A stretch of 58,374 nucleotides of DNA, counting the filler, from Dugesia japonica (lineage: Eukaryota), in the NCBI GenBank assembly GCA_001938525.1. It is 5 parts of 5 records of this genome, joined end to end, with 100 filler letters (N's around TTAATTAATTAA, not from the genome) between each part and the next. Parts side by side here need not be neighbours in the genome. Positions count along the whole stretch, not along the records: positions 34,450 to 47,993 come from MQRL01624026.1; 4 more parts are not named here. One strand, written 5' to 3'. The notes under the pieces are model-generated. The model searched no databases. It saw only the letters and a list, made by a program, of their open reading frames with translations, and had not been told where the DNA came from. Position 1 is the first letter of the stretch. The number at the start of each line of letters is the position of its first letter. This document shows, piece after piece, positions 9,595-56,681 of this stretch. The position numbers and the translations under genes are program-made.

Positions 9595-9638
9595 NNNNNN
9601 NNNNNNNNNNNNNNNNNNNNNNNNNNNNNNNNNNNNNN

Positions 9639-18826: not shown

Positions 18827-18835
18827 TATGTTTTT

Positions 18836-19063
18836 TTATTCGGTTATTGCAATTTCATCGATAGATAACAGTGATATGGTGTCTCCGGTATCCACTAGAG
18901 CGGTTATGGGTCGACCGTTAATTTTAATGATAATAGTTAATACGGGTCCACCATTGAGACCTGCGCATACTACATTCGATGAGATATTACCGGCATTTGT
19001 TTGTGTTTTGCTTTTCCATCTGGGTTCTCTCTCCTGGAACCGTATCCAGTCATCCTTTATCAT
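18836..19063 (-). pseudogene. pol: Retropepsin active-site segment, frameshifted from the rest of Pol
   Basis: INGRPITALVDTG catalytic motif. The frameshift lies at an A-run near 18830-18838. Confidence 0.85.
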
Positions 19064-32948: not shown

Positions 32949-34575
32949 CAATAAATATATACCTATAATGATTTATACATGATTTATATATACCTATAAT
33001 GATACTCCTCGTAATTTTTTAATAATGCCATGAAAATAATTCAAAGACAATTATCGTGCGTGATGGTTATGCAAATAACTCTTCTTATTTCAAAAAATAA
33101 TGGGATCTCTATGAAAAACAATTATCGATTTATTACTACATCGCAAAACTACTACGAATTATACAGCTGAATAATCAGTTTTCAATCAATTCTTCATTCC
33201 CTTTGCTATAATGACATCGTCTGGAACTATTTTAATGATTCTTATATTTCAAACTTGTATCGAATTGTGAAATCAAATATGATCGCATGATGATGCAGAT
33301 TACTAGACAGCATATTATGATCACTCAAGTTTGATAATTCCATTGATAATATTTACTTATAACATGCACTTATTTAATTATTAATTTTGTTATTGAAAAT
33401 ATTTAAGATTTATCACATTATTCTATGATTAGTGTGTAATTACATTCATAATTTGAATCATTGAAGTATAACTTTAGCACATCTTATGAGATAAGCTATA
33501 CTGAAATCTTATGGGGATAGGAAAAATTCAAAATTTAAGCTATAAATAAAGTTGTTTTTAGTTTTTGATAATAATTCTATATTTCGACTTTGTCTTCTTC
33601 GGGAATTGAATTTTTAATATTGATATAGGTTTATTTTAAAANNNNNNNNNNNNNNNNNNNNNNNNNNNNNNNNNNNNNNNNNNNNNNNNNNNNNNNNNNN
33701 NNNNNNNNNNNNNNNNNNNNNNNNNNNNNNNNNNNNNNNNNNNNNNNNNNNNNNNNNNNNNNNNNNNNNNNNNNNNNNNNNNNNNNNNNNNNNNNNNNNN
33801 NNNNNNNNNNNNNNNNNNNNNNNNNNNNNNNNNNNNNNNNNNNNNNNNNNNNNNNNNNNNNNNNNNNNNNNNNNNNNNNNNNNNNNNNNNNNNNNNNNNN
33901 NNNATTTTTCTAAGTATATATGGATAATTCTCAAGTCTTGGTATAGTAATTAATAGTAATATCGATTTTTTTGAAATTTTAAAATGTATTATTGTTAAAT
34001 ATTTTTATGTACTACAAAGTCTTATAATAATTTTTAAATATTATTAATGTTGTCAAAATATATTACTGATTCTATAGTCATGTTTAAAAAAACAACAGAT
34101 ATTCATTATTAAAAACTATTATCAAAGTTTTATATATTAAAAATATCATCAAAATTCATATAAACGAAAATAAAGTTTTTAAAAATTAATATTACTCTCA
34201 TAAATGAAGTATTAGGATTCACAAAAGAAGATCAATCAAATTCATTCATTAATGACGATGATAGGAAAATCTCTTTAGATGTTAAATTCAGGGAACCCAG
34301 AACATACTTTGGATATTCAATCATTTTTTTAAAAAGACCAATTATTTTTNNNNNNNNNNNNNNNNNNNNNNNNNNNNNNNNNNNNNNNNNNNNTTAATTA
34401 ATTAANNNNNNNNNNNNNNNNNNNNNNNNNNNNNNNNNNNNNNNNNNNNTAAAATACTTTAATATCATAAAATAATCTTTTATAATTCTAATACTTTTAT
34501 CTTCACTTTTTTCAATAATATTTGACAGTTTCAGAAATAAATTTTAAAATAATATATATGTAATATATATAAAGA

Positions 34576-34731
34576 TTAAAAAATGTCAGACATTTGAAAT
34601 CCATGAATCGACCTTACAATATCAATCGAAATGTTCAATGATTCTGCAATTTCTTTGTTTGATCTTCCATCTTGAATCTGATTTTGAATCAGTGACACTA
34701 TCTCCTTTGTGATTATAGTCCTTTTCTTCAT
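34576..34731 (-). pseudogene. Helix-turn-helix fragment, probably a Tc1/IS630-type transposase N-terminus
   Basis: MKKRTIITKEIVSLIQNQIQDGRSNKEIAESLNISIDIVRSI fits an HTH pattern. Confidence 0.5.
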
Positions 34732-34800
34732 TCTTTTGCCATCATTTTTTAAAATCCTGTATAAACGGTTGGCATATATCAAATTACAAATTTACTGTCA

Positions 34801-35335
34801 AACTTAGTGTAAATCCTTCGTCAAGTTTATAAATACAAGTTTATGTAATACAAAATAATACAAATAGATTACAANNNNNNNNNNNNNNNNNNNNNNNNNN
34901 NNNNNNNNNNNNNNNNNNNNNNNNACGAGATATAAACTTCATCAGTATGTGGAATTATCTTTTTAACTTTACCTGGATATTTACAAATTAATTCTTTAAA
35001 AAACAAATGATTATCGTAACCAGATGCATTGTGAAAATAAAAAGATATAAATAAAATTTTTATTGATTTATCTTGTAAATTACATTTTGAATGAGAATAT
35101 CTTCTTAATTCCCCATTGAAATGATAGTGATCTAAAACTAGATTTTCAGTTATTGGTTTGTCACAATATCCACATTTTAAGTGAGCTTTCTCACTTTCCT
35201 CAAGTTTCGGAACTTCACCTTAAAATCTTTCGATTAATTTATTTTCTTTAATATCTTGTGTAACTTAGTGTAAATCCTTCGTCAAGTTTATAAATACAAG
35301 TTTATGTAATACAAAATAATACAAATAGATTACAA
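34801..35335. repeat. 74-bp identical direct repeat (34801-34874 and 35262-35335)
   Basis: AACTTAGTGTAAATCCTTCGTCAAG...TAGATTACAA occurs twice. The first copy runs into a gap. Confidence 0.85.
34925..35260 (-). pseudogene. Protein-primed PolB fragment (second copy)
   Basis: GEVPKLEESEKAHLKCGYCDK...VLDHYHFNGELRRYSHSKCNL...FHNASGYDNHLFFKEL...KIIPHTDEVYIS aligns with 49335-49630. Confidence 0.88.
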
Positions 35336-35359
35336 TTGTAATATATAGATTATAGATTA

Positions 35360-35483
35360 TTCATTTAAAATAAAAGCTTCGATCAAAAATTTTTTTGATC
35401 GAACCTTTTATATTAAATGAACCCAAAAAACGATCAATGGTTACGTCTAACAATTATTCTCGCAATAATGTGCAATTGTAAAG
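35360..35483 (+). mobile_element. Double-hairpin mini-element, diverged copy 1
   Basis: 5' fold-back TTCATTTAAAATAAAAGCTTCGATCAAAAA/TTTTTGATCGAACCTTTTATATTAAATGAA. TSD TTATAGATTA (35350-35359 and 35484-35493). Confidence 0.75.
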
Positions 35484-35620
35484 TTATAGATTATATATGT
35501 AATAAATAAATTTATTTATAAATAAAAACACTTATATTTGCAATAAAAAAATTTATATTTGCAATAAAATAATTTATATTTGTAATAAAAAAATTTATAA
35601 TTTGGAATAACCCTGTATAT

Positions 35621-35712
35621 TTCATCGAAGCCTTATCTTATTTTAATGAAATCTCAAATCCGATCAATGGTTAAGTCCAACAATTATTCTCACAATAATT
35701 GTAATTATAAAA
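35621..35712 (+). mobile_element. Double-hairpin mini-element copy 2 (5' hairpin collapsed)
   Basis: Matches the 3' part of the copy at 41831. TSD CCCTGTATAT (35611-35620 and 35713-35722). Confidence 0.85.
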
Positions 35713-36713
35713 CCCTGTATATATAAATTTCTTTAATTATTTTCTAAATGCTTTAAAACTCAGAGTAATTTTGGCTAAATCAATAAAATTTTTGTGTTAT
35801 TTAAAGTTTACTAAAATCTTTGTTTATTAAAACATTTAGACTCTATAAAGCATTAGGAATACCAATTTTTTTAAAAATTAATATAAAGAATAAATACTTA
35901 AAAATAAATTTGTTTTTAAAAACAAAAAAATATTTTATTTAAAAAAAATAATTAACAAGCAAAGATCAAAGTTGCTGTTCCTTTATTTTCAATATTTCGG
36001 CATAGTCATCTTCAGGAACTATTTTTCAGTAAATTCTTATTAGAAATTTTGATAGATTGGAAATAAATCTGAGTAAAATCAATTTTCATTGGTTTTTAAT
36101 TGTAATATAAAATTAAATAAACACTTTCTCGGTTAATTAAATAGATTTATCATAATACAGCTAGTCATAATTATAGTATATTCAGCCAATCAGATTGTGG
36201 TAAATTATTATCAGTGTATTAAGTTAGATTAATTCGTTGCAGTATAATATTTAAAGATATTTTAATCAAGATATTTATTTTTTTGTTTTAATTTTTGAAG
36301 TCTTTATTACTGAATTTTGAATTGTTGGATTCATCAGATTCAACATGCATTTATTCTAAGTGATATTTCGTTGGTTTGTAGCTACATGAAATATATAATG
36401 TCAAAGACAATGTTAATCAAATAATTAAAAAAGGACAATCAAATGTAACAAACTCATTGTATTTCGAAGTCTGATGATGAATTTAAAAAATATGATTTCA
36501 ATTAATTATAAATAGTAATGCAATAAATATATATAAATATGTATTTTTATTTTATTATTTTTTATTATCATTATTAAGACATAATAAAACAATTTTTTCA
36601 TAAAAGTTTATTGTACATAAATTTCACAATGAAACAATAAATATTTACAACCACGTCGCTATTCTTTATAAAGATTCCTGATTGACAAGTTCTTGAAACG
36701 ATAAGCTAAAATA

Positions 36714-37008
36714 TTACTTATTAAGTTTATTTATTTTTTTTACTCTATGTAGAGCATTTTCTATCATAGTTAGCTCAAATTTCTTCCATTGTTGAGCTGT
36801 CTCCATAGAATTGAAGGGCACTTCTTCATAACTATTCTTCAGCATATTAACTGTAGTGCTCACTAAACTGGCTGGCTTTCTAAGATTGAGTGCATATGCT
36901 AATCCTTCCACTATTTTTGTAACCTTTTTTGTGGTTCCCATCTGATATTTATATTCAGGTGTTCTTCGTTTTTTCCTTTCTAGGAGTGCATATCTAGCAA
37001 TTGAACCT

Positions 37009-37047
<39 letters not shown>

Positions 37048-37423
37048 GTTATCATTTTTTACCTGATTCATAGCATATATTCCTTTTTCTATATCCTTTT
37101 CCAATAAATTCCTATATTCTAGGATTTCACATTAATCTCTCGAATTCTTTTTGATGATATTTGTGCTCCGGAATCGCATTTATAATTCTTTCGGAAATTA
37201 GATATCTGCAATCATACAGATATGTGTCCATGTTGTTAGCGAGAATTGTGTTCAGGTTGAACGGGTACTTGTTGCTGGTTTCTGATTGCTGGTTTGCTAT
37301 TCTTTGAATATTGTCCCTCTCCTCCTTCATTTTATTTTCAATACTCACAGGTTGTATATCTACTATAGAATTCGACGGACCATCATCGAACAGTTTAATT
37401 TCAGGAGTTCTCATATTTGACAT
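36714..37423 (-). pseudogene. Hypothetical protein(s), probably one frameshifted gene, with (AAT)n poly-Asn tract
   Basis: Adjacent co-oriented ORFs 37127-37423 and 36714-37055 with an (ATT)n microsatellite at about 37011-37042. Confidence 0.35.
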
Positions 37424-37604
37424 TGCAAAATTAGGAAATAAATGAATTATGACATTTAGTTATATACTATATTACCTAATCAATAATAATATTGATCTGT
37501 ATTGCATGTCTTGCATTTATGCTGTTAATGTAATAATTGTATATATACATAATTTCAGTGATTATGAGACAAAATATAAACAAAACAAAGTTAGTACATT
37601 TATT

Positions 37605-38057
37605 TTAATATACATAAGTCTTAATCATATTTACTTCATCATAAAAATCTAAATTCTTCAAATCAGTTAATACTATTTTCCTTGAATGGAAAACATTCAC
37701 ACACAGAGAATTAAATTTAATTAATCGAAGACCAGGAAATATTTCCGGTTCATACATACAATTTGTATTTTCAGCCGATTTCTGTAAATTTATTGTCATC
37801 TTCAAGCAAGCTGTCACTGTCAATGATTGTATTTCATCAACAAATATTTTGAATGGAAATTCCTTTCTGTCTAATGGCTTTTTACAACCCATTATTCTAT
37901 ATTTTTTACTTGGAAATATGATTATTGTATACTCTAGATACTTTAATACACATTGTTTCAGCTTATAACCAAATCGAAGACCACCTAAGTTTTCTGTCGT
38001 ATGTCCTTTATAGTTTATATTCAATAACATTACAAAAAAACAGTGACTTATTTCCAT
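37605..38057 (-). CDS. Minimal, divergent TATA-binding-protein-like protein
   Basis: Repeat 1 end TIIIFPSKKYRIMG. Repeat 2 IQSLTVT...INLQK...MYEPEIFPGLRL...VNVFHSRKIVLTDLK, compare TBP YEPELFPGL...IF.SGK.VLTGAK. 150 aa, intronless. Confidence 0.8.
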   Translation of the reverse strand: MEISHCFFVMLLNINYKGHTTENLGGLRFGYKLKQCVLKYLEYTIIIFPSKKYRIMGCKKPLDRKEFPFKIFVDEIQSLTVTACLKMTINLQKSAENTNCMYEPEIFPGLRLIKFNSLCVNVFHSRKIVLTDLKNLDFYDEVNMIKTYVY

Positions 38058-41000
38058 CTATTTATAGTTTTTTAGTATTAAAAAAATCAATACACTTATT
38101 GATAAGTTATTTAAAATCATGTATAATACAGAAGCGATTTTAATTCTTATCAATCGATACACAAGTATGATAGTTGATGAAGTTTTGAAGATTTATTCGG
38201 ACACAAAACTATTGTCGACGATCGATAATAACTGACTTTGAAAACGTTATGGATGTTGAAGACACGCTTATTGTTTAACCAAATGTTAATTTAAATCAAA
38301 TGTAATGTTTAATAAAATTTTGGATTCTTATTTTTTTAATTTCCTTTCTATATGATAAATAACAAAAGAGATTTAATAACAATATTTATTTTTTTATAAC
38401 ATTAACAAAATTTACTAAAGAGAATATATTCTAACAATAAAATACATTTAACAATTTCCACACAATATTCTTGCTTTCACCTTTTATTTTATAGCCTTGA
38501 AGTGAAATATTTATACTTGCGGAACCGCTATTTGTAAGAGTGCATAAACTTTCTAAAACATAATATTTGACACTTGATGATCGAATCAAAAATGATTTTT
38601 CTTTAGAATTTTAGTTTCAATATCTGTATCAATAAATCTCAATTCATTTTTTAAGAATTCCAAATTGTAATCTGACAAATGGGTTATCATGTGTTAACTT
38701 TTTGAACCTTGACAACATCAATCATTTCATATCCATTATATATTATAACAGGATTGAAAATTCCTGAAATGAAATTAATGAAATAATCCAATAACAAAAG
38801 ATAACCTACATCGTTTGATCTTTTCTCACCAAATATTTTTTTGGATTTTGTTTCATTCTTCCTTGTTCATCAAACTGACTAGAAAAGTCAAGCATGCCTT
38901 TTAATCATCTCATTTGAGCTAGAATGTGTTCAACTTTCCTTCTACCTTCAGTAAATGTTTGCATTTCTTCTATTGTAACGTCAACTGGTTTTCCTTCATC
39001 GAGAGTACCAATATAACCGACTGAATACCATTAGTGTTTTTCTTGCTAATAGTATACAATTCTATATGAAATTTGATCGGATTATTTTGCTTATTGTATG
39101 TTATTCAGTTCTTTCAAGTACCCATTATTTTCGTATACCTGCATTCCAGCCCAACAAATGCATATAGCTTTAATAGACTCTTTGTGATATTAATAGCATT
39201 CACAATTCAAATATGTTTTGATGGTACGAGAATTAAAAAAAGATTATACAATATAAATTGTGAGAGATAAAAATCATTAAAATTTATGAACCTGAAATTT
39301 ACGAATCGTAAAATATTTAACAAATTATACATATTTGTTAAAGCAATGTTATTAAGATAATTTCCAATCAATAATATATTTATTAAAATTCATTTGAATC
39401 TTTCAATATCTATAATACTTTCTCTGAACTTTTTAACTTCCGAATTGCTCTTGCAATTTTTTTTATTCGAAAATAATATTTAAATTATTTTATGCCAACA
39501 TTAATAATAATAAAATAATTTCAAATGCTTAATTTATGAAACTTAATTTATAAAAAAAACCAAACATTTTAAAATAAAAATTCCGGTTTGTAAAAAATTC
39601 CAATATTTAATTAGTTATCCTTAAAATGAAAAAATAAGAATTACTAAATTTTAACGCTAAAAATATTTCAATACTTTAAAGTTTAGCCAGATGAATAATC
39701 ATGGTGTAACAAATTATACTTGAGAATCAGAGTACTTAAAAATAATTGACTTAAATTTAACAATTTAATGTTAAAAATGAAAATTTATAGTTTTCTAAAG
39801 TTAAATATTTATAATTTTCTGATAATTCGATTTAGTTAAACATGAGAAATGTAGTTCCGTGAAGAACTATCTAGTTGTCGACACTCGAATTTAAATGGAT
39901 ACGCCGACAAAAAACTAACACAATATGTATTATGACAACAAATATAAATTATTAGGCATGTAATTGGTTATTTAACTGATGTCAAATATAAATAATGATT
40001 ATAATAAATGAATAACTAAATTAATACGTTTGAATTCTTTGTAAATATTTATTTAAAATTTACAAAATATAATTTAGTTAAACGTATTAATAATTTAGTT
40101 TGATAAAAATTAGTCAAGACAAATTCAAGTGCGTGAGATTTTAGGGTTTCTCCGAGCTTTTGCTCCTATGCATATAAATACAGAAAATCCATACAGATAA
40201 TACATTATCGCCATAAAAGTTTTCAAATGGTGGGACTAAAATTTCATCATCACAAATAAATAAATATACTTTTATTTTATTTTTCTTTATTTTTTGATAT
40301 GTATTTTATGCAACTGTAACATATGTACCCCATTTAGTTTTTTAATTTCCAAAAAAACTTTATTTTATATGTATACATCTTATTTCCCCAACTAGCATAA
40401 TAACAAGAATTCATAAGAATAATTCTATCAACAATAACCATAATCGATTAAATAACGAGCTCTAGCTTCTTTATCAATCTATTTTTCTGTGATACGTGTG
40501 GGAGCAAGGTCCGTTCACATATTTTAACATAATGCGGCTCGATGATGAATTTTTCGAGCAGCTTGTGGTATCCCGTCTTCCTTGATCGGGCCAATGTTGA
40601 TATAACCAGCGTTCGGCCGCATCCATTCGACGTTGCTCATTTAATTCTGAATGGCAAATTCGACCTATCCACTAAGATACTCGAGTCGTGGTGATAAAGG
40701 TTCTTCAACCGGCGGAAAACCATTTGTTATGTCAAGGACCAATCTCCAACATTATGAGAAGAGAATATAAGTAATTTTACGATGAAGAATGAAGAATGAA
40801 TAACAAAAGTTAAATGACAAATAATTACAAGTGAAACAATTCCAGTAACTTTTACCAGGATGTCTATAGTAATTGTAAATTAGAAATCCAAAACACACAA
40901 CTCAACGGTTAAATGAATATTTATGAAAACGGGAGATAAGGCGTTTGGCAAAGCGCTGATGCGACTTCCGCGGTGCTCTCTGGTTGAAGGGATTGTGGCG

Positions 41001-41830
41001 AATAAGAAAAATTTGCACAATTCGAATTCCAGTATCGTGCTCGTTCGCGTTTGTAGGAATTCCTAATACGAAGTGTTTCGAGCAATATGGGATCCACATT
41101 TGTTCTTTCTGCCAGCATCCCAGTGCCTTCACTCAGATGTTCCCTTATCGGTATGCCTTTTTTAGTACCATCATCAAGGAGATTCAACTTCCATACGTGT
41201 TCATGGATCATGTCTGCTTAAACAGTAACTTTAATTCAGTATCGTTTTTAAAATAATTTAATGAATAAAATAGGACAGGCGAAAAATAAGATAACACAAT
41301 TTATTTATCAATCGAAAATATCAATAAACAAATTTATATTGTCAAATATCAGGTGGTTCCAAAGGGAACATCTCGGTAAAGCAAGCCAGATCGGTGTCGT
41401 CGGGGTACTCTATTTCCTCCGGATGTAAGACACGATCAATTAACTGGTAAAGGCGAGCCAGTTCCCTCTCGTGGCGAATGATCTGAAATATCATATGAGG
41501 TATACTTGGCATGGTCTAAAAGTAATGACAGGATAATTAACAAGTTGAAATCGCGGGGCTTCTGTTGCAGATAAGAGACGCCATACAAAAGAAAATTGGT
41601 GTGACCCTTGTTATAGATTGTAAATCGTACCTGAAGTCTGTTGATATTAACGATCACCAAAGTTAATAGTGATGATAGAAATAATCCTACTATTATTAGT
41701 AATGAAGATAATAAAGGTCAACTCAATTAATACTGAAGAAATAGTAATAATTATACTGTTAATAATAATCATAGCGATAATGGTAATAATGTTTCTAATA
41801 ATAACCCTAAAATAACAATAATAATAATAG

Positions 41831-41999
41831 TTCATTAAAATAAGATAAGGCTTCGATCAAAACAAAACAAAATTTATTTCTAAAAAAAGTTCAAATTTTG
41901 TTCTGTTTTGATCGAAGCCTTATCTTATTTTAATGAAATCTCAAATCCGATCAATGGTTAAGTCCAACAATTATTCTCACAATAATTGTAATTATAAAA
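41831..41999 (+). mobile_element. Double-hairpin mini-element copy 3 (most complete, 169 bp)
   Basis: 45-bp inverted arms (41831-41875 and 41893-41937, one mismatch). 3' stem ACAATTATT-CTCAC-AATAATTGT. TSD TAATAATAG. Interrupts an Asn-codon-rich tract. Confidence 0.9.
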
Positions 42000-43800
42000 T
42001 AATAATAGTGATTATATTAATGATAATAATAATCAATATGATAACAGCAACGATAGGGGTAATAGTAATATTCTTAATAATAATTATAATATGATATTAT
42101 TAACGATAACTATGCGTTGATAGGTGTAGAGAAACCATCATAGCAATGACGATAATATTCGTGTCAGAGACGACAGCGGTAACGCGACGAAATCGATAGA
42201 GTTGATTATTGCTACACCCTATCTACCGGGAATTACGAGTAATTGACATTACTTGCAATATTTCGTGGTTACTATAAATACAACATTATTGTCTAGCATT
42301 AATTTAGTTAGTGAACTTCTCCTGACTGCAGTATTCATTGTGTTTAATTTCCCTGCTAGGGTGTGTGCGTGGCAGTTTTTCTTATTAGATCATGACACTT
42401 ATCGTTATCGGTCGCTTGAATATGATTACACCTTGTCAATTGAATTAGTGGGTTCATGGATAATAGCTTCATAGTCGAGTTTGTGTTTACATAATTTATT
42501 ATGGGCGGAAAAGATGGTTACACATCTATTAGTTATTTATTCTTGTGGCGATATCAATTCACGACTTACTAGAATGCTTAGTTTGCTTAATCGTACCTGC
42601 CCCAATTGAATAGAGATATGTGATTATTAATATTTAATTTAGAAGTAATGTGGATCGCAAGGGAGAGAATTTTACTGCGACCTTAGATCAATTCAAAAAG
42701 TTTAACCTATACGCCATATAGTTTTCTCTAGAAATATAATAAATACATTTTTAGCATGAATTAATTTAGTTTCAAACATATTTAACAGAAATTCACCTCA
42801 TTAAAATATAAAAAGAAATCAAAATGCATGCTCACTATTTAAGTTTAATGATCTGCGGCCGAGATTGTTTTAATGGTTTCCTTTTTCCTCCTTTTCGGGT
42901 AGTGTTTCCTGATAATTAGTTGCTAATTCTGTTAGGTTATTGCTAATACAAGCTCTTATAGTTGATAATAATGAAAATTAGAAGAATATATCGTCTAAAA
43001 TTCGGGGGTTTTTATACTTTACTTATGCAACTCCGACTTGGTTCTAATTGGATCAATATTTTTAGATTTTCTCTGAGTTTTCATTCGTTCCTTTCTGCAT
43101 TTATATATTTTTTCTAATTCTTTCGTGTTTTCTTATTGGTGTTTATTTTTGGGTACCGCATGATTTTCATGTATTTATTCTTTGTTCTTTTCATGGCTTC
43201 TTATTGGTTCAATCTTCCTGACCCTTTCTTGACTCTTCTAAAAATGATACCTTTTAATTTTAGCAGAAATGAATTGCTTTTACTGATATCTATCCAGTTT
43301 CTGTTGTCTCGTCGTTGTTTGACCATTCTATGGAAAGTTATTCACATTTTTCCGATTTTCATGTCAATGACCTTTCTTTTTCGCATTAGTTAATTAATTT
43401 TTTCTTTATTATTTCTTAATTTCATTTCTCGATATTTTAATTTATTCAATTATAATTTATAATATTTCTTGATTATGGAGGGTCACTCCTTGCTCTTCGG
43501 TATTTCTAATTTATTTCTGAATATTTCTAATTAGTTATTTGTAATTATCTTCGTTTTATTTTTTTGATTAAAATTAATATTCAATTATTGATTGTCTAGT
43601 TGCTGGGGGTCTGCCATTTATTAGTTCTTCCTTTCAATGTTTTAACTGGTTTCTTTTCTTGGGTCCCTATTTCTTTTATCTTCGATAATCGGGTGTTTCA
43701 CCTCAACATTATGAAGCTGATATGTTCCTTGATTGTCCCATCTAATTATTTAGAGGCAAAGTTCAACTTGTCTATTCGAATAATAATAATCAATTGAATA

Positions 43801-44556
43801 CAAATTGGTAAGGTCCAAAGGTTAGATCGATAGTTTCCGCATGACTGAACTTACCAGCAAAAAAGAAATCGTTCCGAAGCTTGCCTTTACTCTCACGATA
43901 TAAAGTCGAACAATTTCTTTAACGTGTCGTGATATGTGATGAAATATATATTCGTTTCGATAATCGTAGGGGTTCATCTTTAGTTTGATAAACGTGAATT
44001 ACCAAAACAGAGTTTAAAGCTAAAATTCATCAAAAAAGATAATATTATCTGTTTGGTGGTCTAGCGCTGATAGAACAGCTTTTTAATAACCGGTCAATAC
44101 ATTACGGATGTCTACTGCAACCAATGGGACAACATGGTGAGATTGCTTAAGATTAAGCAGCCGAGATTAGTCATTAGAGACAGGCTAATTTTCTTGCAAG
44201 ACAACGCTCGACATCATGTTAACCTACCAACGCTACTAAAACTGCTGGGTTTTGAATTGGAAACTATCATTCACTGTATTCACCAGACATTGTTCCAACA
44301 CTATCATTTATTCCAGGCATTAGAAAACTTCTTAGTGGAAATATTATTGGAATCTGAAGAGACTGCAAAAAACTTCTTTCGTGATTTTAATTGCTACTAT
44401 CACCAGACATCGCTGCTTAAATAATCAAGTGGCAATTAAGATGTCAAAATTATGTCATTAGTTTTGATGCATATTCGAATAAATGTATTTTTGCTTGTTA
44501 AATAATAATCCGAAATTTTGATTAAAAATTCGACATTTCATACTTAATAATCTAAT
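43801..44556 (+). mobile_element. Mariner transposon, 5'-truncated and decayed
   Basis: GKVQRLDR*FPHD (WVPHEL motif), VVICDE, FLQDNARHH, YSPDIVP, YHLFQAL. TIR-like 3' end AAAATTCGACATTTCATACTTAATAATCTAA. Confidence 0.9.
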
Positions 44557-45775
44557 CTAAGCAAACTAAACACACTATAAACACATTGTAAAAATTATAA
44601 ATATAAATAAATAAATAAAGATTTACTGTTTTTGAAAGTTTGCATATACTGTTAGAACGTTAGACTTTGGTGTTTTGATATTCGAATTACTTGTACCGCT
44701 TTTCATTATTTAACTAATAATTTCTATTTGTCTAGGGGTATGCCTAAAATCCTCTTATCCTGGTTCAGTGCGACTTTGCGGTATCGCATCTTAATTATTT
44801 CATTACCGGGCAACATGTATATTGCTCATTCTTTCATTTCTATTTTTTAGAAAACCAAATTTGAAAGAAAAAAATTATTTTTCACTAACCATACATAGTC
44901 AAAAGGAATCAATAACAGTCTGCTGCTAAGATTTATTTTCCAGGCTTTATCATATTATACCTTCTGTATTCTCCTTCGCACTTGGTTCCCCCTTCGCTTG
45001 CTGGCAGGACAACCAGTGTCTTGAGCGTTGTGAAGAGTAGACTCTCTTTCCGCATAGATTTTAATCACTTTACTTCGCTACTTAATTCTCACTTTTCTTC
45101 CTTCCATTTCTTCTGGATGTTTAACATTAAACTCGTATTTAATGTTTCCTTCACCGATTTAGACACTTAATTAGACACTGTGTGTGTTTGATTGCAACGC
45201 CCTCATTTGTCAATCAAATCATCACCGGTTAGTGTGTGCGCGAATGAATTTACTGCACACCTCGAGTGGTGTTGATTGTGTGTAGATGAGCTGTCTCATC
45301 ACAAAAAAACTGCTAATGTTGAACCATGGGGTATCGTACATTTTAAATGGTTAGTGCAACTAATTGATCTTGTCATTGTGATTATTGTTGTCACGCCCGA
45401 TACTCCACCACTGGGTCCCTATGATCAATTCCTCTAATTTTCCATTTCACTTGGTTTTGTTGTCACCTCGTGTTTCAACTTCGCTTCCGCTGGAAATCTC
45501 CTTGAACCGGTCCTTAACAAATTTTCCATGAAATTATCAATAAAATCTCTTGCTGTTTATGTAACACATTTGACTGATTTCCAGACTTTTTATTATTTGT
45601 CATCATCTTTTCACGTTGGAACTTTCTAGTTGTCCACATTTCACTTGTCCTACTCTTTTGCATCGTACTACTTGCTGTCACTATTGACATTTCTGCCGTT
45701 TTCAGATATGTCTTCATTTTCGTTTCTGGTTTTGTCGGCTTTATTGTTGCTCGCGTTTGGCTGACATTTATTGGG

Positions 45776-45876
45776 TTTTATAATTACAATTATTGTGAGA
45801 ATAATTGTTGGACTTAACCATTGATTGCATTTGAGATTTCCTTAAAATAAAGAAAAGGCTTCGATCAAATTTTGAT
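45776..45876 (-). mobile_element. Double-hairpin mini-element copy 4 (truncated)
   Basis: Reverse complement of the 3' about 95 bp of the copy at 41831. No TSD found. Confidence 0.85.
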
Positions 45877-46090
45877 AAAAAAGGAGTTGATACAAACTCA
45901 GAATGAAAATAAAATTTTAAAGAAAAAAATAGAAAAAATAAAAAATATAAGTTTTTTTATTATTAATATTTTAGTAATCGTAATCATAATCGATTGGTTT
46001 TTGAAAATATACTTATAATAATTGTAAAGTAAAGTAATGGAAAGTAAAATGGAAAAGTAAAGTAAAGTAAGTATTTAATTTATTAATAAA

Positions 46091-46255
46091 ATGTCTTCTA
46101 ATATACAAAGATTTTTACAACCAGGTTCAACTGAAGAAGAATTTTTTAATTTATTAAAAAGTTATAATTTTAAAGAAAATTCTGTTTTAGCTTTTGCAAA
46201 GCAAAATAATGTAAATGAGAAAACAGTAAGAAAATATTTAAGGGAATTAAATTAA
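46091..46255 (+). CDS. Small HTH-like protein (54 aa; may continue by frameshift into a Q/P/N-rich tail)
   Basis: MSSNIQ...SVLAFAKQNNVNEKTVRKYLRELN fits an HTH pattern. Confidence 0.45.
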   Translation: MSSNIQRFLQPGSTEEEFFNLLKSYNFKENSVLAFAKQNNVNEKTVRKYLRELN

Positions 46256-46574
46256 AAGTACAGTTACTAAAACTTTAGAAAGGGGTGTTAATGGACAATA
46301 TAAATTTGTCTTTAAACCATAACTGCCAATCCCAAAGATTCCAATTCAAAATTCCATTAGACCCATTCAAAATCAAAATCACAAAGGGTCCCATCCTATT
46401 AGACCAGTTCAAATTCAAAATCCCAACGTGTCCCATCAAATTCAAAATCAAGAAACACAAGAAGTTCAAAAACCTATTATAGATTATCGAAAAATGAATA
46501 ATGATGACTTTATAAAATGTATGGAAAAAACTGTTCGCAGAAAATTATAGAATTTTGTTTTTTGAGTAAAGAAA

Positions 46575-46886
46575 ATGGCTAGTAAAAAAGTAGTTGTTGT
46601 TAAACCAAAACCACAAGAAGTTTTGACTATTAATACTTTNTATAATAGTATAAATAATTTAGCAAATCTTGAAAATTTTACTTTTGAAGAAATTAATAAT
46701 TTTGCTAAATGTGAAATTACAAGTAAAACAGCAAACAAATATTTAGCTGTTTTAAAAGATATTTTTTGTCAAGTTGAGAACTTTAAAGATAGCGAAAAGT
46801 TTAAAATATTATTAACAGTAATGTTTTCAAAATTTTGTGAATCAGAATGTAAAAGTAAATTAATAAATAGTTTATCTAAACAATAA
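46575..46886 (+). CDS. Hypothetical viral protein
   Basis: 103-aa ATG ORF preceded by an A-rich start context. Coding-like sequence continues past the stop. Confidence 0.4.
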   Translation: MASKKVVVVKPKPQEVLTINTXYNSINNLANLENFTFEEINNFAKCEITSKTANKYLAVLKDIFCQVENFKDSEKFKILLTVMFSKFCESECKSKLINSLSKQ

Positions 46887-48093
46887 CTTAGAAATGTAGA
46901 AATTATAAAACAACTAGAAAGTGATTACCAAAAAGATAGAGATGAACATAATAAATTAAGAGAACAATATAATTTAGAACAAAAACCTAAATTTTTAGAA
47001 CACCCTGGTTTGAAACTTTCCTTTATAAAATATGAAGATGATGATGACTTAATTATTTCAAATTTAGATTGTATTAACATAGCAAATGAAATTTAAAAAT
47101 ATAATGATAATTTATGTGAAAGATTAACTCGAGTAAAAGTTCCACAAGAATATGAAGATGAAATTAAAAGAGTTTATGCAGCTAAAAGCGAGAGCTAAAA
47201 TCAGAGCTAACTTAAATAAAAAATGAAAATAAAATCTTGAAAGAAAAAAGAACAAATAAAAAAATGTAGTTTTTATAAATAATTATAAATAAATTAATAA
47301 TGAGTGAAAATTGGGATTTATTTTTAAAAAANNNNNNNNNNNNNNNNNNNNNATGAATTAAAACAAGCTTGGGGATGGTGTCTTTTTAAACGGAAACCAG
47401 AAATAAATAAATCATTTATATTTATAAATCTATTAGAAATAATGTGGAAATGTAAATATTTATCAGATGAAGAAACTTCAAATTTGTTAAATTATCTAAA
47501 TAATTTTATTTTTAGTAATATTGATCTATATAATTTATTTTTTTATTATAAATAATTATATTATAAATTAATAATGATTATAATATTTATTTTTTTTTAA
47601 AACAGTTTATCTTCAAGAATTTTGTTTAGATAGTGTTGAAAAACCATTTTTACATTTGAGTGGTTTTAATAAATCTTGTAAATCATTTTCAGATATATGT
47701 TTAGATAATAAAAATCAATAGTGTAATATTACAAATAAAAAATATTTAGATTATTCATTAGAAAAGGCTGTTTTAAAATTATAAAAGATAAATCAATCAT
47801 TTATGGATAATATCAAACATTGTGATTTAAGAAACACATGTTATAAAAAAGATGTAAATTGTTATTCAGCAATAAATAAATGTGAACAATGCTATATTCC
47901 TTTTGATATTATTGTTTTAATAAATTTTGCTTTAATTCAATTAGGTATGGATTCAATTGTATTGAATTCATCAAAATATTCTTTATGTTTCTTNNNNNNN
48001 NNNNNNNNNNNNNNNNNNNNNNNNNNNNNNNNNNNNNTTAATTAATTAANNNNNNNNNNNNNNNNNNNNNNNNNNNNNNNNNNNNNNNNNNNN

Positions 48094-48166
48094 ATTTTAA
48101 TGAAATCTCAAATGCAATCAATGGTTAAGTCCAACAATTATTCTCACAATAATTGTAATTATACAA
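48094..48166 (+). mobile_element. Double-hairpin mini-element copy 5 (3' part, contig start)
   Basis: ATTTTAATGAAATCTCAAATGCAATCAATGGTTAAGTCCAACAATTATTCTCACAATAATTGTAATTATA directly after the gap. Confidence 0.85.
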
Positions 48167-51100
48167 TTGATTATGATCTAGAAATTCGTGACATCTTTAA
48201 AATGTATAAGGAGTATGAACACTTGGAAAGATCAATAAAAATGATTAATGAATTTCAAAAAGAAATTCTCGAAATTATTACCAAGTATTTTAATTATGGT
48301 AAAAAGATTATTGTCCGAATGAGTGTCAATGGTAATTATAATAAAGAAGTAAACGGTGAAAATGTTGAAAATATTTTTAATTCGTATTCAAATAATAAAC
48401 AATTTACTATTGCAAGTGAAATAAATGATGGAGTTGTTGATATTATAAATCAACTTCAAAGATTCATGGAAGATGAAGATAGAAACGAATCTGGATGGAA
48501 TTTAAATTATATAGTTGATTATAAAATTGAACTTTCTAAATATCAATCTTTAGCTGGAGCAACTTATCAAAAATTACTATTTTCAAAACCAGGTGTAATT
48601 AATATTCAAAACAAAGGTGAAAAATATTTTTTATTTCAATTTTAAATCACAAATATAGACTTAATAATCCAACTAGATTTGTAAAATATATTCCTCATTT
48701 ATCTGAATTAAAAACCAACGAAATTAAATTTCCAGTAAATATTTATGATGTTAAAAAATTTGAAAAATTAAATGATTGGAAAATAAATGTATTTACTGTA
48801 ACTGATTCCAAAATAATTGAACCTTTAATATATATTACATTAAGAAACTAAACCAAAACCTGAGCAGAATAAATGTAATTTATTAGTTTATACAAAACCT
48901 AGCGGGCCCCACCATTTTATTTTATGTAGAGATGTACAAGTATTTTTTACAAACAAAAAGAAATAAAAATTATTTATGTATTAGATGTATGAATTGTTAT
49001 CAAAGTAAAGATTTATTAACAAAACATCAAAAGGAATATATTAAATCATGAAATATCAAATATTACATTTCTAAAACATAATGATTATTATTTTCAAAAT
49101 TATTATTACAAAAATAAAATATCTTTAGTAGTTTATGGTGATTTTGAAAGCTGGACTAATAATAACCCCAACTAGCCCCACACAAAGAAACAAAAACCTT
49201 TATCACTTGGAATTTATGTAGTAAGTAAGCATCCACATTTAATGAAAAATGAAATATTCATGAACAGTTTTTTGAATTTTTAAATCAACTAAATAATGAA
49301 TTAAAAGATGTAAAAGAAAATCAATTAATATAAGATATTTAGGTGAAGTTCCTGAACTTAGAGAAAGTGAGCAAGCTTGCCTAAAATATAAATATTGTGA
49401 TAAATAGATGGGGTTTGAAAATCCAGTAATTGACCATAACCATTTCAATGGTGAATTTAGAGGTTATTTTCATTCAAAATGCAATTTACATGCCAAATCA
49501 ATAAAAAATTTATTTTTACTTTTTTATTTTCATGTTTCAGGTTATGATTATCATTTTTTTTCAAAGAATTAATTAGTATCCAAGTAAAATTAAAAAAATA
49601 ATTCCACATACAGATGAAGTTTACATTTCATTCCAATATGTAAACATTAGATTTTTGGATTCAGTAAGAAAGTAACCTTTTACATCAATTGAGAAAATGG
49701 GTGAAATGTTAAATTATTCTTGACAATATAATCATTTAAGAGCATTTAATCCTGCTCCAAAGAAAATATCATTTCCTTATGAATATGTAAAAGGAAATGA
49801 TATTAATCAAGTAATTGAATTATTAAAAAGTAACCATATTCCATCAAAAGAAGATTTTAATAATAAACTAAAACTAAAAAGAATATCAGAAAAGGATTAT
49901 AATGAATTTTTACAAGATTTAGAAAAACACAATAATTTATTTGATTATATGATGTATTTTATGAAACTAGATGTAATTATTTTAGTAGATTTTTTTGAAA
50001 ACTTCAGAGAAAAAATAGATCCTAGTTATTGTTATTCTGCACCAGAATTAACGTGGGCTGCAGGAACTAAATTTACCCAAGTAAAATTAAAATATGCACA
50101 AAAAAACGTATGATAGATTTATTAAAATAGAAAGAGGAGTTAGAGGTGAATATTCAGGTGTTTGTAGAGAAAGACAGGTCTTTTCAAATAATCAAAAATC
50201 AAATACTAGATTTGGAAGAACTAGACAATTAAATAAAGCACAAGTAGGTGATATATTATTTTCATTTATTAAAAATAAAACTGGTTCCTTCGGTAATGAC
50301 TTTAAAGGAGAGCAAATAAATAAAAAAGAAGAAACATTTTTAAAATATTTAGATGAAAATAGTCTATATGCATCTTGTATGACAAAACTGTACCAACAGG
50401 TGAAATCTATGAATGTCTTCCAGAGTCAGGATTTAAATTATACACCAGCAACAGACAAAATAAATTATATTTATGAAGTGGATTTAGAATATCCACTTGA
50501 AATTCATGAGAAAACTAAATATTTTCCTTTAGCACCAGATCCAATAAATATAACAAATGAAATGTTAAGTCCTTATCAATTATCATTTCAGAAAAAGTTG
50601 AGTAAAAAGAAATATTAAATTAACATTAAATCGATTTGATAAACAAAATTATATTATTCTAGGAAAAACACTAGATTTATACAAATCTTTAGGGATGAAA
50701 AATATAAAAAATCCATTCAAAATATAAAATGCCAACAAAACCATGGTTAAAGGATTACATTCAATTTAATATAATTCAAAGAAATGAAGCCAAACGAAAT
50801 AATAATGTTTTTGGAGATTATTTCTTTAAATTATTAAATAATGCTTTCTATGGAAAAACTTTAGAAACATAAGAAATAGATGTAATGTTGAAATTGTAGA
50901 TAATAATAGAGATTATCACAAATTCGCATGAAAAATTTATTTTAAATCTAGTAAAATATTTAGTTATAAAGAAACTTCGGAAACTCCTTTCAGTCGCTAG
51001 CGAATGCGAGCTCATGGACACTCGCAACCTTAGGAAGCATAATCTGCAGCAATTCATCTTTATAAAACAAGTTTAAAATATAATAAATTTCCATACATTG

Positions 51101-51696
51101 TTTTCATTATTTTAGAATATGCAAAATAAGTAATTTATGACTTTATTTATAATCAATTAGACAAAGAAATACCAAACAAGTATAAAATTCATTATAGTGA
51201 CACAGATTCTATCTTTGTAGAAATAATTGGTCAAGAAACTTTAAATAAAGTAGCAAGTTTATTAGGTAACAATTTATTTTAAATGAAAGATGAAAAACCA
51301 AATAATGAAATAGTTAAATGTAATTTTATTAAAGCAAAAAGTTATATTATTCAAGATTTTAAAGCAGGTAATCACAACGGACCCAAAAATATAGAAACAA
51401 AACATAAATGAGTTTCTAAAACTAATTAAATACGAATGGAAGAATATGATAAAGTTTTACATAATCCCAAAGAAATAATTTATGGAACTAATCATAGTTT
51501 AAAATCTCATAAACATAAAATAGAATTAGTTGAACAAAAAAAGATTGCTTTAACAGGATACGATGATAAAAGATTAATAGAAGACATTGGAATAAGAACT
51601 TGGCTACAAGGAAATAAATTTAAATGTGAAGTTTGTAATCAGTGGTATTTAAGGTTGGATAAATTAAAACGAAAATTAGAATGTACTTTATTATAA
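48167..51696 (+). pseudogene. polB: Protein-primed family B DNA polymerase (Polinton type) with endonuclease VII-like insert
   Basis: ESGW..YQSLAGATY..VINIQN; ExoI VYGDFES; VIDHNHFNGEFRGYFHSKCNL; ExoII FHVSGYD; RFLDS; FPYEY; motif A YLDENSLY; motif B KLLNNAFYGK; motif C YSDTDS; KIALTGYDDKR. Many stops and frameshifts. Confidence 0.96.
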
Positions 51697-51729
51697 AAAA
51701 AGATTGTGGGCGCGCGCACAAATTATTTA

Positions 51730-52338
51730 TTTCTTTAATTTATTAATTACTTTCTGTTGTTCTTCAATTTGATTTTCAAGTTTCTTTAAAATTTCATTAC
51801 TGTTATATTTAACTTCTTTTTTATTTTCATTTGAAATTAAATCTTTAACTTGTTTTACCATATTTTTACTAATAGATATTTCTTCATCAGTTAATACATC
51901 ATCTGATAAAGCTTTTTGATGAAATAAAAATAATTTGTTTTTAACAGTTTCTAATTCATGAATTAAANTTTTATACTTCTTCTTTTTAGATTTTATTTAA
52001 GATGCATTTAAAGTTCCAATTATGGGAATATAGGAAACTGATGTAGTTAAAATTATGGAAACTAATCCACCGACAACTCCACCAATACCAAAAGTTCCTA
52101 AAGAAAGTAAAACTGTTCCAGTTATTCCAACAACTGTTCCTATAAATATTTCTGTAAATCTTATTGAAGTATTTAACCTTGACCTTCTTTTATAAATCTT
52201 TTTATAATGATTAATTTTATCATCAATAAAATATAAATCTGATTCAAAATCTACTATTCTTAAATTTGATAATTTAGTCTTTAGATCTTGAATAGTGTAT
52301 TTTTTATGATTATGATTTTTTAGTAATTGATTAATCAC
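51730..52338 (-). pseudogene. Polinton-type membrane protein (Gly-rich TM hairpin plus coiled coil)
   Basis: Hydrophobic FIGTVVGITGTVLLSLGTFGIGGVVGGLVSIIL. Coding sense continues past the stop at 51997 with KALSDDVLTDEE. Confidence 0.55.
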
Positions 52339-52999
52339 TTAAAATAATAATTTTACAAATATAAATGTTTTTAGGTAAAATTAAAGTAACTCTATCTACA
52401 GTATATTTATCAGTTAATAGAATTTCTTTATATTCTATAAAACAAATAAAATTTTGTTTTTTAATAAAGTTAAATTCAAATATTTTTGGAGTGTTATTAA
52501 TCATTACATATATTTCAAAAAATGAAATATCAAAATATCCTTGAATTATAAAATAAGCTTTATCTCTTATTCTGTTTTTACGAAAATAAAGTTCTAATGG
52601 TTTTTCAAGGTAAAAATATCTTTTATATGCTGGATTGGTTATTCTTTCTTTCCTTTTTATTTTAAATAGTAGTATTAAAACATAATAAGTTGGTAGTCCA
52701 TTTACTACAATAAAAGTAGTTAATAAAAATATTAATACATCATTATATTTTCCGTAATTTTTAAAAGTGAGAAATGGTAAATAATTATTAATTATTTCTT
52801 TAAACATGTTTAACAACTTTTGTTCATAAAGTTTTTTAGATGAAGCTTGTTTTTTTAATTTATTAATGCAATCATTAATTTCTTTAACATGATCAATATG
52901 AAGATATTCTTTTATTTTATTAAATTCTTGTTCAGATGGAATTAAAGGATNNNNNNNNNNNNNNNNNNNNNNNNNNNNNNNNNAATTTAATATTTCCAA
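52331..52999 (-). CDS. Hypothetical viral protein
   Basis: 222-codon frame (contains a gap) co-oriented with the structural block. Confidence 0.45.
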   Translation of the reverse strand: MEILNXXXXXXXXXXXXPLIPSEQEFNKIKEYLHIDHVKEINDCINKLKKQASSKKLYEQKLLNMFKEIINNYLPFLTFKNYGKYNDVLIFLLTTFIVVNGLPTYYVLILLFKIKRKERITNPAYKRYFYLEKPLELYFRKNRIRDKAYFIIQGYFDISFFEIYVMINNTPKIFEFNFIKKQNFICFIEYKEILLTDKYTVDRVTLILPKNIYICKIIILSD

Positions 53000-53119
53000 A
53001 TCTGAATTAATTTTATTTAATTTTTCAGGAGAACAATAACTAGATAAATTATTAATCTCTTTTGTTAGTTTTGTAATTTTTCTAATCTCTTGTTTAACTT
53101 GTATATTTTTTAAATCGGT

Positions 53120-53368
53120 TTAAAAAGATTCACTAATAGTTTGTGTTAGCTCATTTAATTTATTTATTTTAATAATTAAATCGGCTTTATCTCTAATCCA
53201 CGATTTATTATTCTTCGTTAGCATTAGCGCATTTTCCAAAAGCTGTTTAATATCAATATTTTGATTTTTCAATTGATTTTTTAAATCAGAAACTTGTTTT
53301 TGTAATTTAGTAAAATATTTTAAATTTATAGCATCTAGTTCATTTTTTGGTTCATTAATAATTTTCAA
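53120..53368 (-). pseudogene. Hypothetical viral protein fragment (coiled coil)
   Basis: NEPKNELDAINLKYF followed by heptads. Confidence 0.35.
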
Positions 53369-53519
53369 ACAAGTAATCGAATATCCACTTTGATTAACAA
53401 ACCTTTTACCATTGTTTACAGATTCTAATTTTAATTTAGCAGTAACATGTTTTAATACTTGTGTATTATTTTGACTATTTAAAGTTTCTACAAATTTATT
53501 TATTTATTTTCTATACAGA

Positions 53520-53960
53520 TATTATACAATTTATTTTTTATAACTCATTTTGAATTAAGGTTGTAAATAATTTATTAAAAATTTCATCAAAAGGTTTAAA
53601 ACTAAGTGAATATAAAAAATATAAACATAATACTCTACAAACACTAGTTCCAAAAGGTTGAACTTGAATTTTGTTATAAACCGTTACATGTTTTTCAATT
53701 TCTTTAAAAAGTTTTAAACCAAAAGAATCAAACTAATAACTATGGACCTCTTTAGGGTTAGAAAAAGCAACCCAATGACTTTCTTTTTTATTTGAATTTT
53801 GATAATTAATAAATTTTCAGGCCCCACGGGGCCGATTTATTATCTTTCATTAATAATTAATCTTTCATTAATATTTCTATTTCTAAATTTAAAAAATCAG
53901 CAATAGAGTATAAATCAAAATTGGTTTTAGTATTTATTCCAAATGTTTTTAAAAAATCTA
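53520..53960 (-). pseudogene. Adenain-like maturation cysteine protease
   Basis: TNFDL...FINYQNSNKKESHWVAF...Y*FDSFG...YNKIQVQPFGTSVCRVLCLYFL gives catalytic H, D, Q and C in adenain order. Not in the ORF track because of stops. Confidence 0.88.
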
Positions 53961-54635
53961 AGATCCCTTACATTTTCTTATATAAACTAATAAAGAAATA
54001 GTTTCACCATCAAAATCTATAGGATTTTTATTTTCATCTATAATATTAAATTTTAAAGAATCAATAAATTTGAAGTTTAATCTTGAGTAAATAGGAGTTG
54101 AAAATCTTTCTATAATTTTGAAAACAAAACCAACAGTATTTACTGGGAAAGAATATAATAAATTCATTGGTAAGTTGTTGATATAATTACCTTTAACTAA
54201 ATTGCAAGTTAAAATTTTCATATTAATGTTTAAAATATCAACTTTATTTTCAGAATAATATTTTCCTGGTGAATATTCTTTAGGTAAAAAACCTAAGATG
54301 ATATGAAAAATTTATTTTATCAAACTTGAGAGAATGTTTTGTTGTTAAATTACATTTCTTTGTTGAAAGATCTGGAACAATTTCAATTCCATGATCTTTT
54401 AATTTACTAGAGATTTCTTTAATTTCATAAGCACCTTGTTCAATGGTTTTCTGTTCTTATTTTAAAATAAAAATATTATTTTTATTAGTAACATTAAAAA
54501 TTATATTATAACAACTAAAAGATAATAATGCCATTACAAAGTCAGAATCTAATTCTATTGGAAATCCTAAATCAACTTATAAATCAGACCTCGGAAGGCC
54601 CCCTTCTTTACCAACAACTAAAATTGATGAGACAT
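53958..54635 (-). pseudogene. Minor capsid (penton-like) protein
   Basis: FPIELD..ALLSFSCYNNIFNV..NNIF..GAYEI..LGF..CNLVKGNYIN..LYSF..IIDENKNPIDFDGETISL, the Polinton minor-capsid pattern. Confidence 0.8.
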
Positions 54636-54659
54636 TTTATTTATAGAAAATATTTATTT

Positions 54660-55467
54660 TTATAAACATTATATTTTTCTTTATTAATTAATTCTTGGTT
54701 TAATAATTCTTTACAAACAGATTTAATTTCTTTGTTTAAATTATTATGACCTGCTTTTATAGCTGAAATTATTAATGTTCATCTTTCAAATAAAGTTATG
54801 GGATCTGAATCACCTTTAGCTCGCATTCGCTCTCGATTGAAAGGAGTTTTATGATTTGAATTTAAACCATCACCTTTAATATTTTTAGGAGTTTCTTTTT
54901 CCGAAATTCGATCTTGCTCATAACTGAAAGGAATTTCTTTTTCAACAACTGGTTTTATAAAGTTTCTATAATATTTAGAATTATGAGAAATTCTAATATT
55001 TATTTTTTTTACATAAATATTTTTTGCTTCAAGATCATTACTTCCATTGCCTAAAATTAAATTCACGACTTCTTCAGAATAAGAAATTAGTTCTTGGTTA
55101 TTTAAAAACTATTTCTTTCCATTTTCTTCAAATAAATATATTATGGTTTGTGATCCTTTTTTATTAGGATAAATTATTTTTTAAAAGTTTTTATTATCAA
55201 TAACTTCTATTTCAAATATAAGTTTATTTGTATTAGATAAATTATCAATATTTAAATTAATTTTAGGAAAGAATGGTATTCTATTTTCAAAAGGATTTTT
55301 AGATTTTGTACCCAAGTTTTAATAGTAGGTTGTTGTTGTGTAGTTAAAACATATTGTAAAGTTTTTGATTCAATTACATTACCAGTAAATAAATTATCAT
55401 AATCATCTTGAGCTTTAATTAATTCTTTAAAAAATCTCATTCTTTCTGTTATTTGTTCACTATCCAT
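54660..55467 (-). pseudogene. Conserved Polinton core-type protein
   Basis: Starts MDSEQITER at 55467. C-terminal SDPITLFER*TLIISAIKAGHNNLNKEI..ELL resembles the DP..L..RL....AG.N...EI motif of Polinton proteins. Confidence 0.55.
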
Positions 55468-55469
55468 TT

Positions 55470-55990
55470 TATTCAGGATTTTCATGATGATTTTCATGAG
55501 AATTTTCATAAGGTTTTAAATATAAACCATCACCTTTTATTTTAACCTGTATTCCATTTTTAAAGCTTTAGTAATCATTTTCAATTTCTAGTTTAGTAAA
55601 CTATTTTTTAAATATTTATGACTTGAACTTCCTTGATAAGGTTTTAAGTAAAGTCCTGAACCAGTTTTATTTGCTTTTAATTTATTTTCTAAATCTTTTT
55701 TCTGTAATTCAACTAATTCTGTTTCTCTTTGTTTTTTAATTGTATCTATAAAATTACTTACTGTACTTGCCACTGCACTAGCTGTTCCAGCAACTGCAGC
55801 CGCAGCTCAAGCAGCAGTTGTTATTCCAGCGATTATCCTAGGAATTAATCCTAATAAAGGAAATAATTCACCTTCATGTTCTTTACCAAACGCTAATTTT
55901 TGTTTTATTTCTTCTTTAACTTTATTTCCAATCCAATAGTTTTTAGCATTAAATTTTACAGATTTACATGTATTTGAATTTACCAAATCA
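55470..55990 (-). pseudogene. Putative protease-processed membrane-active core protein
   Basis: HEGELFPLLGLIPRIIAGITTAA*AAAVAGTASAVAS amphipathic/Ala-rich segment, coiled coil, then two GxGLYLKPY repeats. Confidence 0.55.
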
Positions 55991-56045
55991 CTTAATTCTT
56001 GTTCTGATATAGAAGAAATTTTCTTTTAAAAAATAATAAAAAATA

Positions 56046-56615: not shown

Positions 56616-56681
56616 TTTTAGTTTTATCCATTTTATATGGAACTCTTTTGGGATTTTAAACTTGAAATTAATTATACAACT

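Follow-up and report, generated by a model that had tools for sequence, protein, structure and literature searches.

The window analyzed here, a stretch of 58,374 nt of Dugesia japonica DNA (GCA_001938525.1), contains on its minus strand, at 37605-38057, a 150-aa open reading frame (ORF) resembling the TATA-binding protein (TBP). The preliminary description attributed it to a mobile element or a mid-size DNA virus encoding its own TBP, which would either redirect Pol II or act as a decoy; the question is to what kind of genome this gene belongs, and what such a small TBP does there. We consider it fairly probable that the ORF is a decaying endogenous copy, and that the protein of the intact element serves as a late-gene switch, which would read TATAAAC(A) and recruit host TFIIB and Pol II.

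The ORF matches the Pfam TBP family (PF00352, E 5.6e-10) by its C-terminal repeat only (residues 75-135), and its matches among PDB sequences are TBPs, the top one being archaeal. The true start is most likely the Met codon at 38030, yielding a coding region of 141 aa (37605-38030, minus strand), because none of the six closest relatives (54-72% identical) starts more than one residue away from this Met, four of them starting at its equivalent or one residue earlier. The ATG at 38057 is less suitable, as it lies only 2 nt behind a canonical TATA box, TATAAATA (38059-38066, minus strand), to which we ascribe the likely promoter function for the TBP gene. Between this box and the Met codon at 38030 there is a putative initiator-like GTCACT (38042-38047, minus strand), labeled so by its resemblance to the Inr consensus. 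The TATA box would represent an early-type promoter, resembling the canonical TATA boxes observed for 19 of 41 TBP genes of the family described below.

The N-terminal repeat is invisible to sequence search and was revealed by a structure model (pLDDT 91), in which all 141 residues align with residues 66-235 of yeast TBP (Z 12.8-13.2, rmsd 2.3-2.8 A). Over TBP folds in general, 139-141 of the 141 residues are aligned with Z 12-13, consistent with the two-repeat saddle. Both half-repeats named in the preliminary description are thus present, and the protein is indeed too divergent and too short for a cellular TBP (21-29% identity, the core being shorter by about 25-30 residues).

A profile search identified 352 proteins of this compact TBP family at E<=1e-3 among 3152 candidates, and the hits of an unindexed search below 1e-30 fall into 21 clusters at 50% identity. 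The best 120 of the 352 proteins, mostly of 144-160 aa, were examined, and 116 of them were aligned with the window copy. Identity within the family ranges from 36 to 74%, the closest relatives of the window copy being compact proteins of the same length (54-74% identical). Protein-cluster look-ups returned no names for 17 proteins, and viral contigs searched with alignments of TBP, the likely capsid, ATPase and polB contained no relatives.

Equivalent positions are given in yeast TBP numbering; the superposition sets residue 4 as N69 and residue 6 as V71, and the profile alignment sets residue 32 onward. The stretch from residue 11 to residue 82 is free of helices in the model; the basic regulator patch is missing together with both helices of the N-lobe (H1 and H2), as seen both in the model and from the spacing of conserved residues. 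In particular, among the 117 aligned members the distance from N69 to F116 is mostly 35-37 residues, compared to 47 in TBP, and the one from F116 to N159 is mostly 30-31, compared to 44. The intercalating phenylalanines, proposed for inspection in the preliminary description, are retained at F116 (117/117), F190 (116/117) and F207 (117/117), while the one of the F99 region is missing, so that three of four remain. The glutamates contacting TFIIB are also conserved (E186 in 112/117, E188 in 117/117), both being present in the window copy; the roles of these residues and of helix H2 are taken as outlined in the text of PMC7221094.

The DNA face, with contact positions as tabulated in Table 1 of PMC12529657, is changed in both lobes. 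The N-lobe substitutions are V71N (115/117), V122R (117/117) and T124M (117/117), and N159S (114/117) and V161T (102/117) are also observed. In the C-lobe, I194R (114/117), V203C (116/117) and L205N (117/117) occupy the three specificity positions of the TBPm3 variant, as these are given in PMC1636458.

A tree was built from 109 rows, in which all 59 rows of the compact type group together (SH-aLRT 99), and the eukaryotic TBP/TRF rows form a separate clade (support 99). Two-lobed non-cellular TBPs are placed weakly between them (support 83-86), and may be, on this weak placement, the sister or parent group of the compact clade. Grouping of the window copy with the seven eukaryotic TBP/TRF rows is rejected (p-AU 0.021). 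As judged from these sequences, the compact family lies outside the eukaryotic TBPs represented by the seven rows, TRF2 and NCLDV TBPs being outside the sampling.

A metagenome scan confirmed 117 relatives, of which 80 were kept. Among them, 59 loci (L001-L059) were analyzed as the compact type, 20 others being archaeal-type, two-lobed or unassigned; a divergent compact member, L061, carries TATAAACA twice and was left out of the counts. At least one Polinton core gene is present in 20 of the 59 compact loci, and in 14 of the 21 loci of at least 3 kb. The A32 ATPase, rve integrase and adenain protease near compact TBPs were identified by Pfam, which gave only an endonuclease VII match on polB and no match on the putative capsid ORFs; the genes that we take to be polB and the major and minor capsid proteins are labeled so from their size and gene order. 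Three loci (L021, L025, L081) are near-complete Polinton elements carrying a TBP of this family. These observations support the compact TBP as a gene of a Polinton/adintovirus lineage at the family level, and the mobile virus-like element suggested in the preliminary description is borne out by the Polinton genes, the repetition in the host (see below) and the position outside eukaryotic TBPs.

No TFIIB-family match was found among 75 proteins from the loci and the window remnants (the elements being incomplete, with several ORFs without assignment), and the conserved TBP neighbors, clusters CL2, CL8 and CL5/CL1, match no family. In five loci (L007, L012, L022, L025, L030) the TBP-adjacent gene (clusters CL5 and CL1) looks spliced, two conserved ORFs being separated by an intron-like GT..AG stretch. 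The near-complete Polintons L081, L082 and L084 are binned inside bacterial MAGs and represent contamination of those genomes.

A second large class is formed by two-lobed TBPs of about 170 aa beside Polinton genes (L064, L066, L074, L082; proteins P0271-P0389; 110 matches), some of which carry the annotation "TBP 2-like" in oyster genomes. Asn occupies V122 in 89 and T124 in 91 of the 110, as it does in the herpesvirus protein ORF24. Like the compact TBPs, they are found beside Polinton integrase or ATPase (in the four loci seen). Unlike them, they keep both helices and F99, and their loci contain no TATAAAC box.

This box was observed in the upstream regions of element genes, which, among the regions listed, fall into two promoter types. 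Among the non-repeat 8-mers of 41 dereplicated loci, TATAAACA shows the strongest enrichment (84 occurrences compared to 27 expected). With L081 added, these loci contain 55 virion-module genes, 42 of which have TATAAAC in the sense orientation within 150 nt upstream; no gene has it in antisense, and the shuffled mean is 2.2 (maximum 8). The distance to the ATG is 17-119 nt, with the peak at 32-39 nt. The exact word is missing from 13 of the 55 genes, and the relaxed [TCG]ATAAAC from 5. TATAAAC occurs in 15 of 16 elements, across deep branches. It precedes only one of 41 TBP genes, and one of 17 genes from four other gene clusters, among which a canonical TATA is found for 12 of 17. Moreover, where TATAAAC overlaps coding DNA it is encoded by rare codons, ATA-AAC being used for 18 of the 29 Ile-Asn pairs located close to gene ends, compared to 6 of 57 elsewhere; the box being held inside coding DNA through rare codons, selection acts on the DNA.

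In the control loci, TATAAAC precedes one of 26 virion-module genes. The controls are four loci with two-lobed TBPs (L064, L066, L074, L082) and one partial locus where the TBP is not seen (L084), forming about three lineages related in pairs, so that Fisher p values for the box counts overstate the independence of loci. L082 and L084 have canonical TATAAAAG-type words instead, in L082 at matching places; the TBP of L082 has two lobes, the face of the N-lobe being near-canonical, and the polB of this locus differs in type from that of the compact-TBP elements. No box for the two-lobed class was found by eye in the five loci. The distribution suggests that the box and the TBP type co-evolved. 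Still, since the control lineages are few and also differ in the polB type, the box and the protein may merely share ancestry, one not reading the other. Upstream of many TBP genes without a clear TATA (L007, L012, L033, L041, L045, L046, L054), a TTGTTTTA-like word is seen at about 50-60 nt, possibly a feedback site.

The mechanism that we favor would proceed as follows. Host machinery would transcribe the TBP gene early from its canonical TATA box, the box being observed and the timing proposed. The mini-TBP keeps the saddle, three intercalating phenylalanines and the two C-lobe glutamates, through which it could bind TFIIB. The N-lobe of TBP touches the 3' half of the TATA box (PMC1636458), here AACA; lacking F99 and the helices, and carrying V71N, V122R and T124M, this lobe likely accepts or prefers C at position 7. 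The loss of helix H2 would allow escape from TFIIA, TAF1, Mot1/BTAF1 and Brf1. Finally, the virion-module genes (packaging and likely capsid) located behind TATAAAC would be fired late, "late" and the capsid labels being derived from gene order.

The chances seem to us about even for a broader proposal, that a widespread lineage of animal Polintons possesses an orthogonal Pol II core promoter. In that case a single regulator-proof mini-TBP of 16 kDa would read TATAAACA, ignoring host TATA boxes or being ignored at them, and would by itself recruit host TFIIB for the virion program, other Polinton lineages having differently rewired TBPs with boxes of their own. The 110 two-lobed relatives count against the favored mechanism, as their DNA face is also remodeled, yet no box has been found for them.

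An unlikely alternative is that the compact TBP has a separate job and TATAAAC is read by something else, such as host TBP (as a weak TATA working only after genome amplification), a forkhead-type factor of the host or the product of another viral ORF. The forkhead consensus is RYAAAYA, and ATAAACA fits it; the forkhead-type GTAAACA, at 40 occurrences in the 41 dereplicated loci compared to 38 expected, is not enriched, and a forkhead site was rejected as the box. The strand bias (42 versus 0) and the peak at 32-39 nt fit a core-promoter element. As for host TBP, the wild-type protein has been crystallized on a C(-25) variant (PDB entry 1qn3), while in the TBP selections described in PMC1636458 C at position 7 is disfavored, and the changes in the compact protein are located in the lobe that touches this half of the box. 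Another viral reader could be sought among the conserved neighbors without family match (CL2, CL8, CL5/CL1), and the confounding of the control comparison by lineage leaves room for any of these readers.

Of the two functions offered in the preliminary description, redirection of Pol II is favored by the TATAAAC box, and the decoy has lost ground. A decoy or repressor, soaking up TFIIB or blocking host TATA promoters and thus damping host transcription, is in our opinion quite improbable. It agrees with the retained TFIIB glutamates combined with the loss of one phenylalanine and of the co-activator surface, and the changes at V71 and V122 could weaken DNA binding. But it has no need for a DNA face in which new residues have reached 98-100% fixation across a family with 36-74% identity, and it leaves the confinement of the box to virion genes unexplained. 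A processed pseudogene of a host TBP/TRF in repeat debris, suggested by the intronless ORF, its surroundings, its damaging-looking substitutions and the absence of TRF2 from the tree, is extremely improbable given the compact relatives of the same length, their Polinton context, the very high depth in host DNA and the AU test, and the single-copy case within the host clade and without viral neighbors, named in the preliminary description as refuting, is contradicted by the same data.

Viral TBPs (vTBPs) are known in beta- and gammaherpesviruses, EBV BcRF1 and HCMV UL87 being examples other than KSHV ORF24. The latter is proposed to read variant TATA boxes on late genes using host Pol II (PMC12529657). 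The late-gene switch preferred here resembles it in the virus-encoded TBP fold and the polar remodeling of the DNA face, changes in ORF24 being listed in that source at V122, T124, V161 and L205. ORF24 differs in having 752 aa, keeping F99, reading TATT and acting in a six-protein complex, and it is reported there to be incompatible with TFIIB, whereas the compact TBP keeps the TFIIB glutamates, has about 145 aa (the window copy being a single domain of 141 aa), lacks F99 and two helices, and is paired with TATAAAC. By this analogy, the best reading is that the compact TBP works like ORF24, yet is outside that family and minimal.

Loss of the N-lobe regulator patch is shared with TBPs of NCLDVs and other dsDNA viruses; as described in the text of Ravarani et al. 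2020 (PMC7221094), these mostly occur with a viral TFIIB and have variable TFIIB glutamates, in contrast to the compact family, where these glutamates hardly vary and no TFIIB was found. Structure matches to the window TBP in BFVD are only 8-18% identical. Compared to cellular TBP (PF00352), the same fold is present at full length, including the C-lobe YEPExFP loop, but with three of four phenylalanines and with new, fixed residues at each of the three TBPm3 positions. In the legend of Fig. 5 of Starrett et al. 2021 (PMC8502044), one TBP-like gene is labeled in a MELD element whose PolB is adintovirus-like; the text covered there describes neither a family or structure nor a promoter box or function for it, and identity with the compact family cannot be told from the label. 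Beyond this label, the literature covered, with subscription journals, Repbase and figure images outside its scope, contains no account of the compact family or of the TATAAAC box.

The family bears on two problems of Polintons and adintoviruses, namely how the expression of their capsid genes is timed and whether these elements continue to act as viruses. The combination of an early gene and a late box is testable by binding assays and transcript-start data, and the late box provides a marker for finding tissues that run the virion program. A natural TBP without N-lobe helices and with a changed box also offers a test of which TBP parts Pol II initiation requires, and an orthogonal promoter system could be made of the mini-TBP and its box.

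The window copy itself is a relic only, pointing to the family. It retains every family signature residue. Its reading frame is still open, which counts against decay. At the same time, it deviates from the family consensus at 10 flagged columns, six of which are fixed at at least 90% (residues 24, 42, 44, 108, 117 and 123, counted from the Met at 38030), and its C-terminus is about four residues shorter than in its closest relatives. Among the 38 differences from other copies listed (40 of 103 rows being shown), 17 affect the third position of a codon, a share compatible with neutral drift (p=0.095 for the departure from neutrality). By these sequence features the copy is likely a decaying, diverged and probably dead member of the family.

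The compact family is highly repeated in the host. When contigs from host DNA runs are summed, the ORF attains a depth of up to 13,000 per bin, or 44,600 with finer binning (this depth not being a copy number), compared to 8-12 for contigs identical to the window copy; the flanks, mostly at 50-300, are far less repeated than the ORF. Three poly(A) runs of one study (X21-X23) cover the ORF to a maximum depth of about 40 and list no splice joints over it, and none of 92 and of 135 reads is at least 95% similar to the window copy. Run X24 has only 6 reads on the ORF, and run X20 no depth in the approximately 6% of the run that was read. Thus, other copies of the family are transcribed in the host, and the window copy was not seen transcribed; the transcribed strand is not given by the read orientation in these runs.

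The window is composed of five separate contigs, joined artificially by spacers of the form N44-TTAATTAATTAA-N44 (9539-9638, 19077-19176, 34350-34449 and 47994-48093), so that gene order across contigs is meaningless. The contig bearing the TBP spans 34450-47993. The preliminary description placed the gene in a run of co-oriented ORFs or remnants close to a Polinton polB fragment, and these features exist. Downstream of the TBP there are, on the same strand, a 98-aa ORF behind a TATA-like box, TATATAAC (37127-37423), and a 113-aa ORF (36714-37055); stop-riddled remnants are located upstream (38401-39231, minus strand). None of them matches Pfam families, cluster profiles or the loci of relatives. 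A GT..AG intron-like stretch is seen by eye at about 37010-37060, between the two downstream ORFs.

The polB fragment (34926-35213, minus strand), with an endonuclease-VII-like insert, is located on the same contig, 2.4 kb from the TBP. It is 78% identical to polB of a different-type Polinton on another contig (48094-58374) and only about 32% identical to polB of the TBP-bearing loci; resembling another Polinton type, it may belong to a different element and is weak evidence for the nature of the TBP's element, and its tie to the TBP may be incidental. This 290-nt fragment is the sole Polinton piece on the contig: the TBP is not surrounded by an intact element bearing core genes and terminal repeats, Polinton core-gene profiles have no match within 35.3-48 kb of the window, and no virion genes flank the TBP. 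Between the fragment and the TBP, at 35155-36300, there are short repeats of a family with very high copy number (depth up to 8e5) and inverted-repeat joints, likely a MITE-like element; the same family is seen at 41831-41999, 45766-45850 and 48094-48166.

The second Polinton (48094-58374) is degraded and occupies its own contig, with polB on the plus strand and a DJR-like capsid gene (PF21738), A32 ATPase and protease on the minus strand. It has no TBP match, and TATAAAC occurs only twice on its capsid strand. Elsewhere in the window, a Gypsy-type LTR retroelement (reverse transcriptase, RNase H, integrase and a weak dUTPase) followed by long ORFs occupies 10000-19076 on the minus strand, and one of these long ORFs encodes a BIR inhibitor-of-apoptosis domain (11829-12482).
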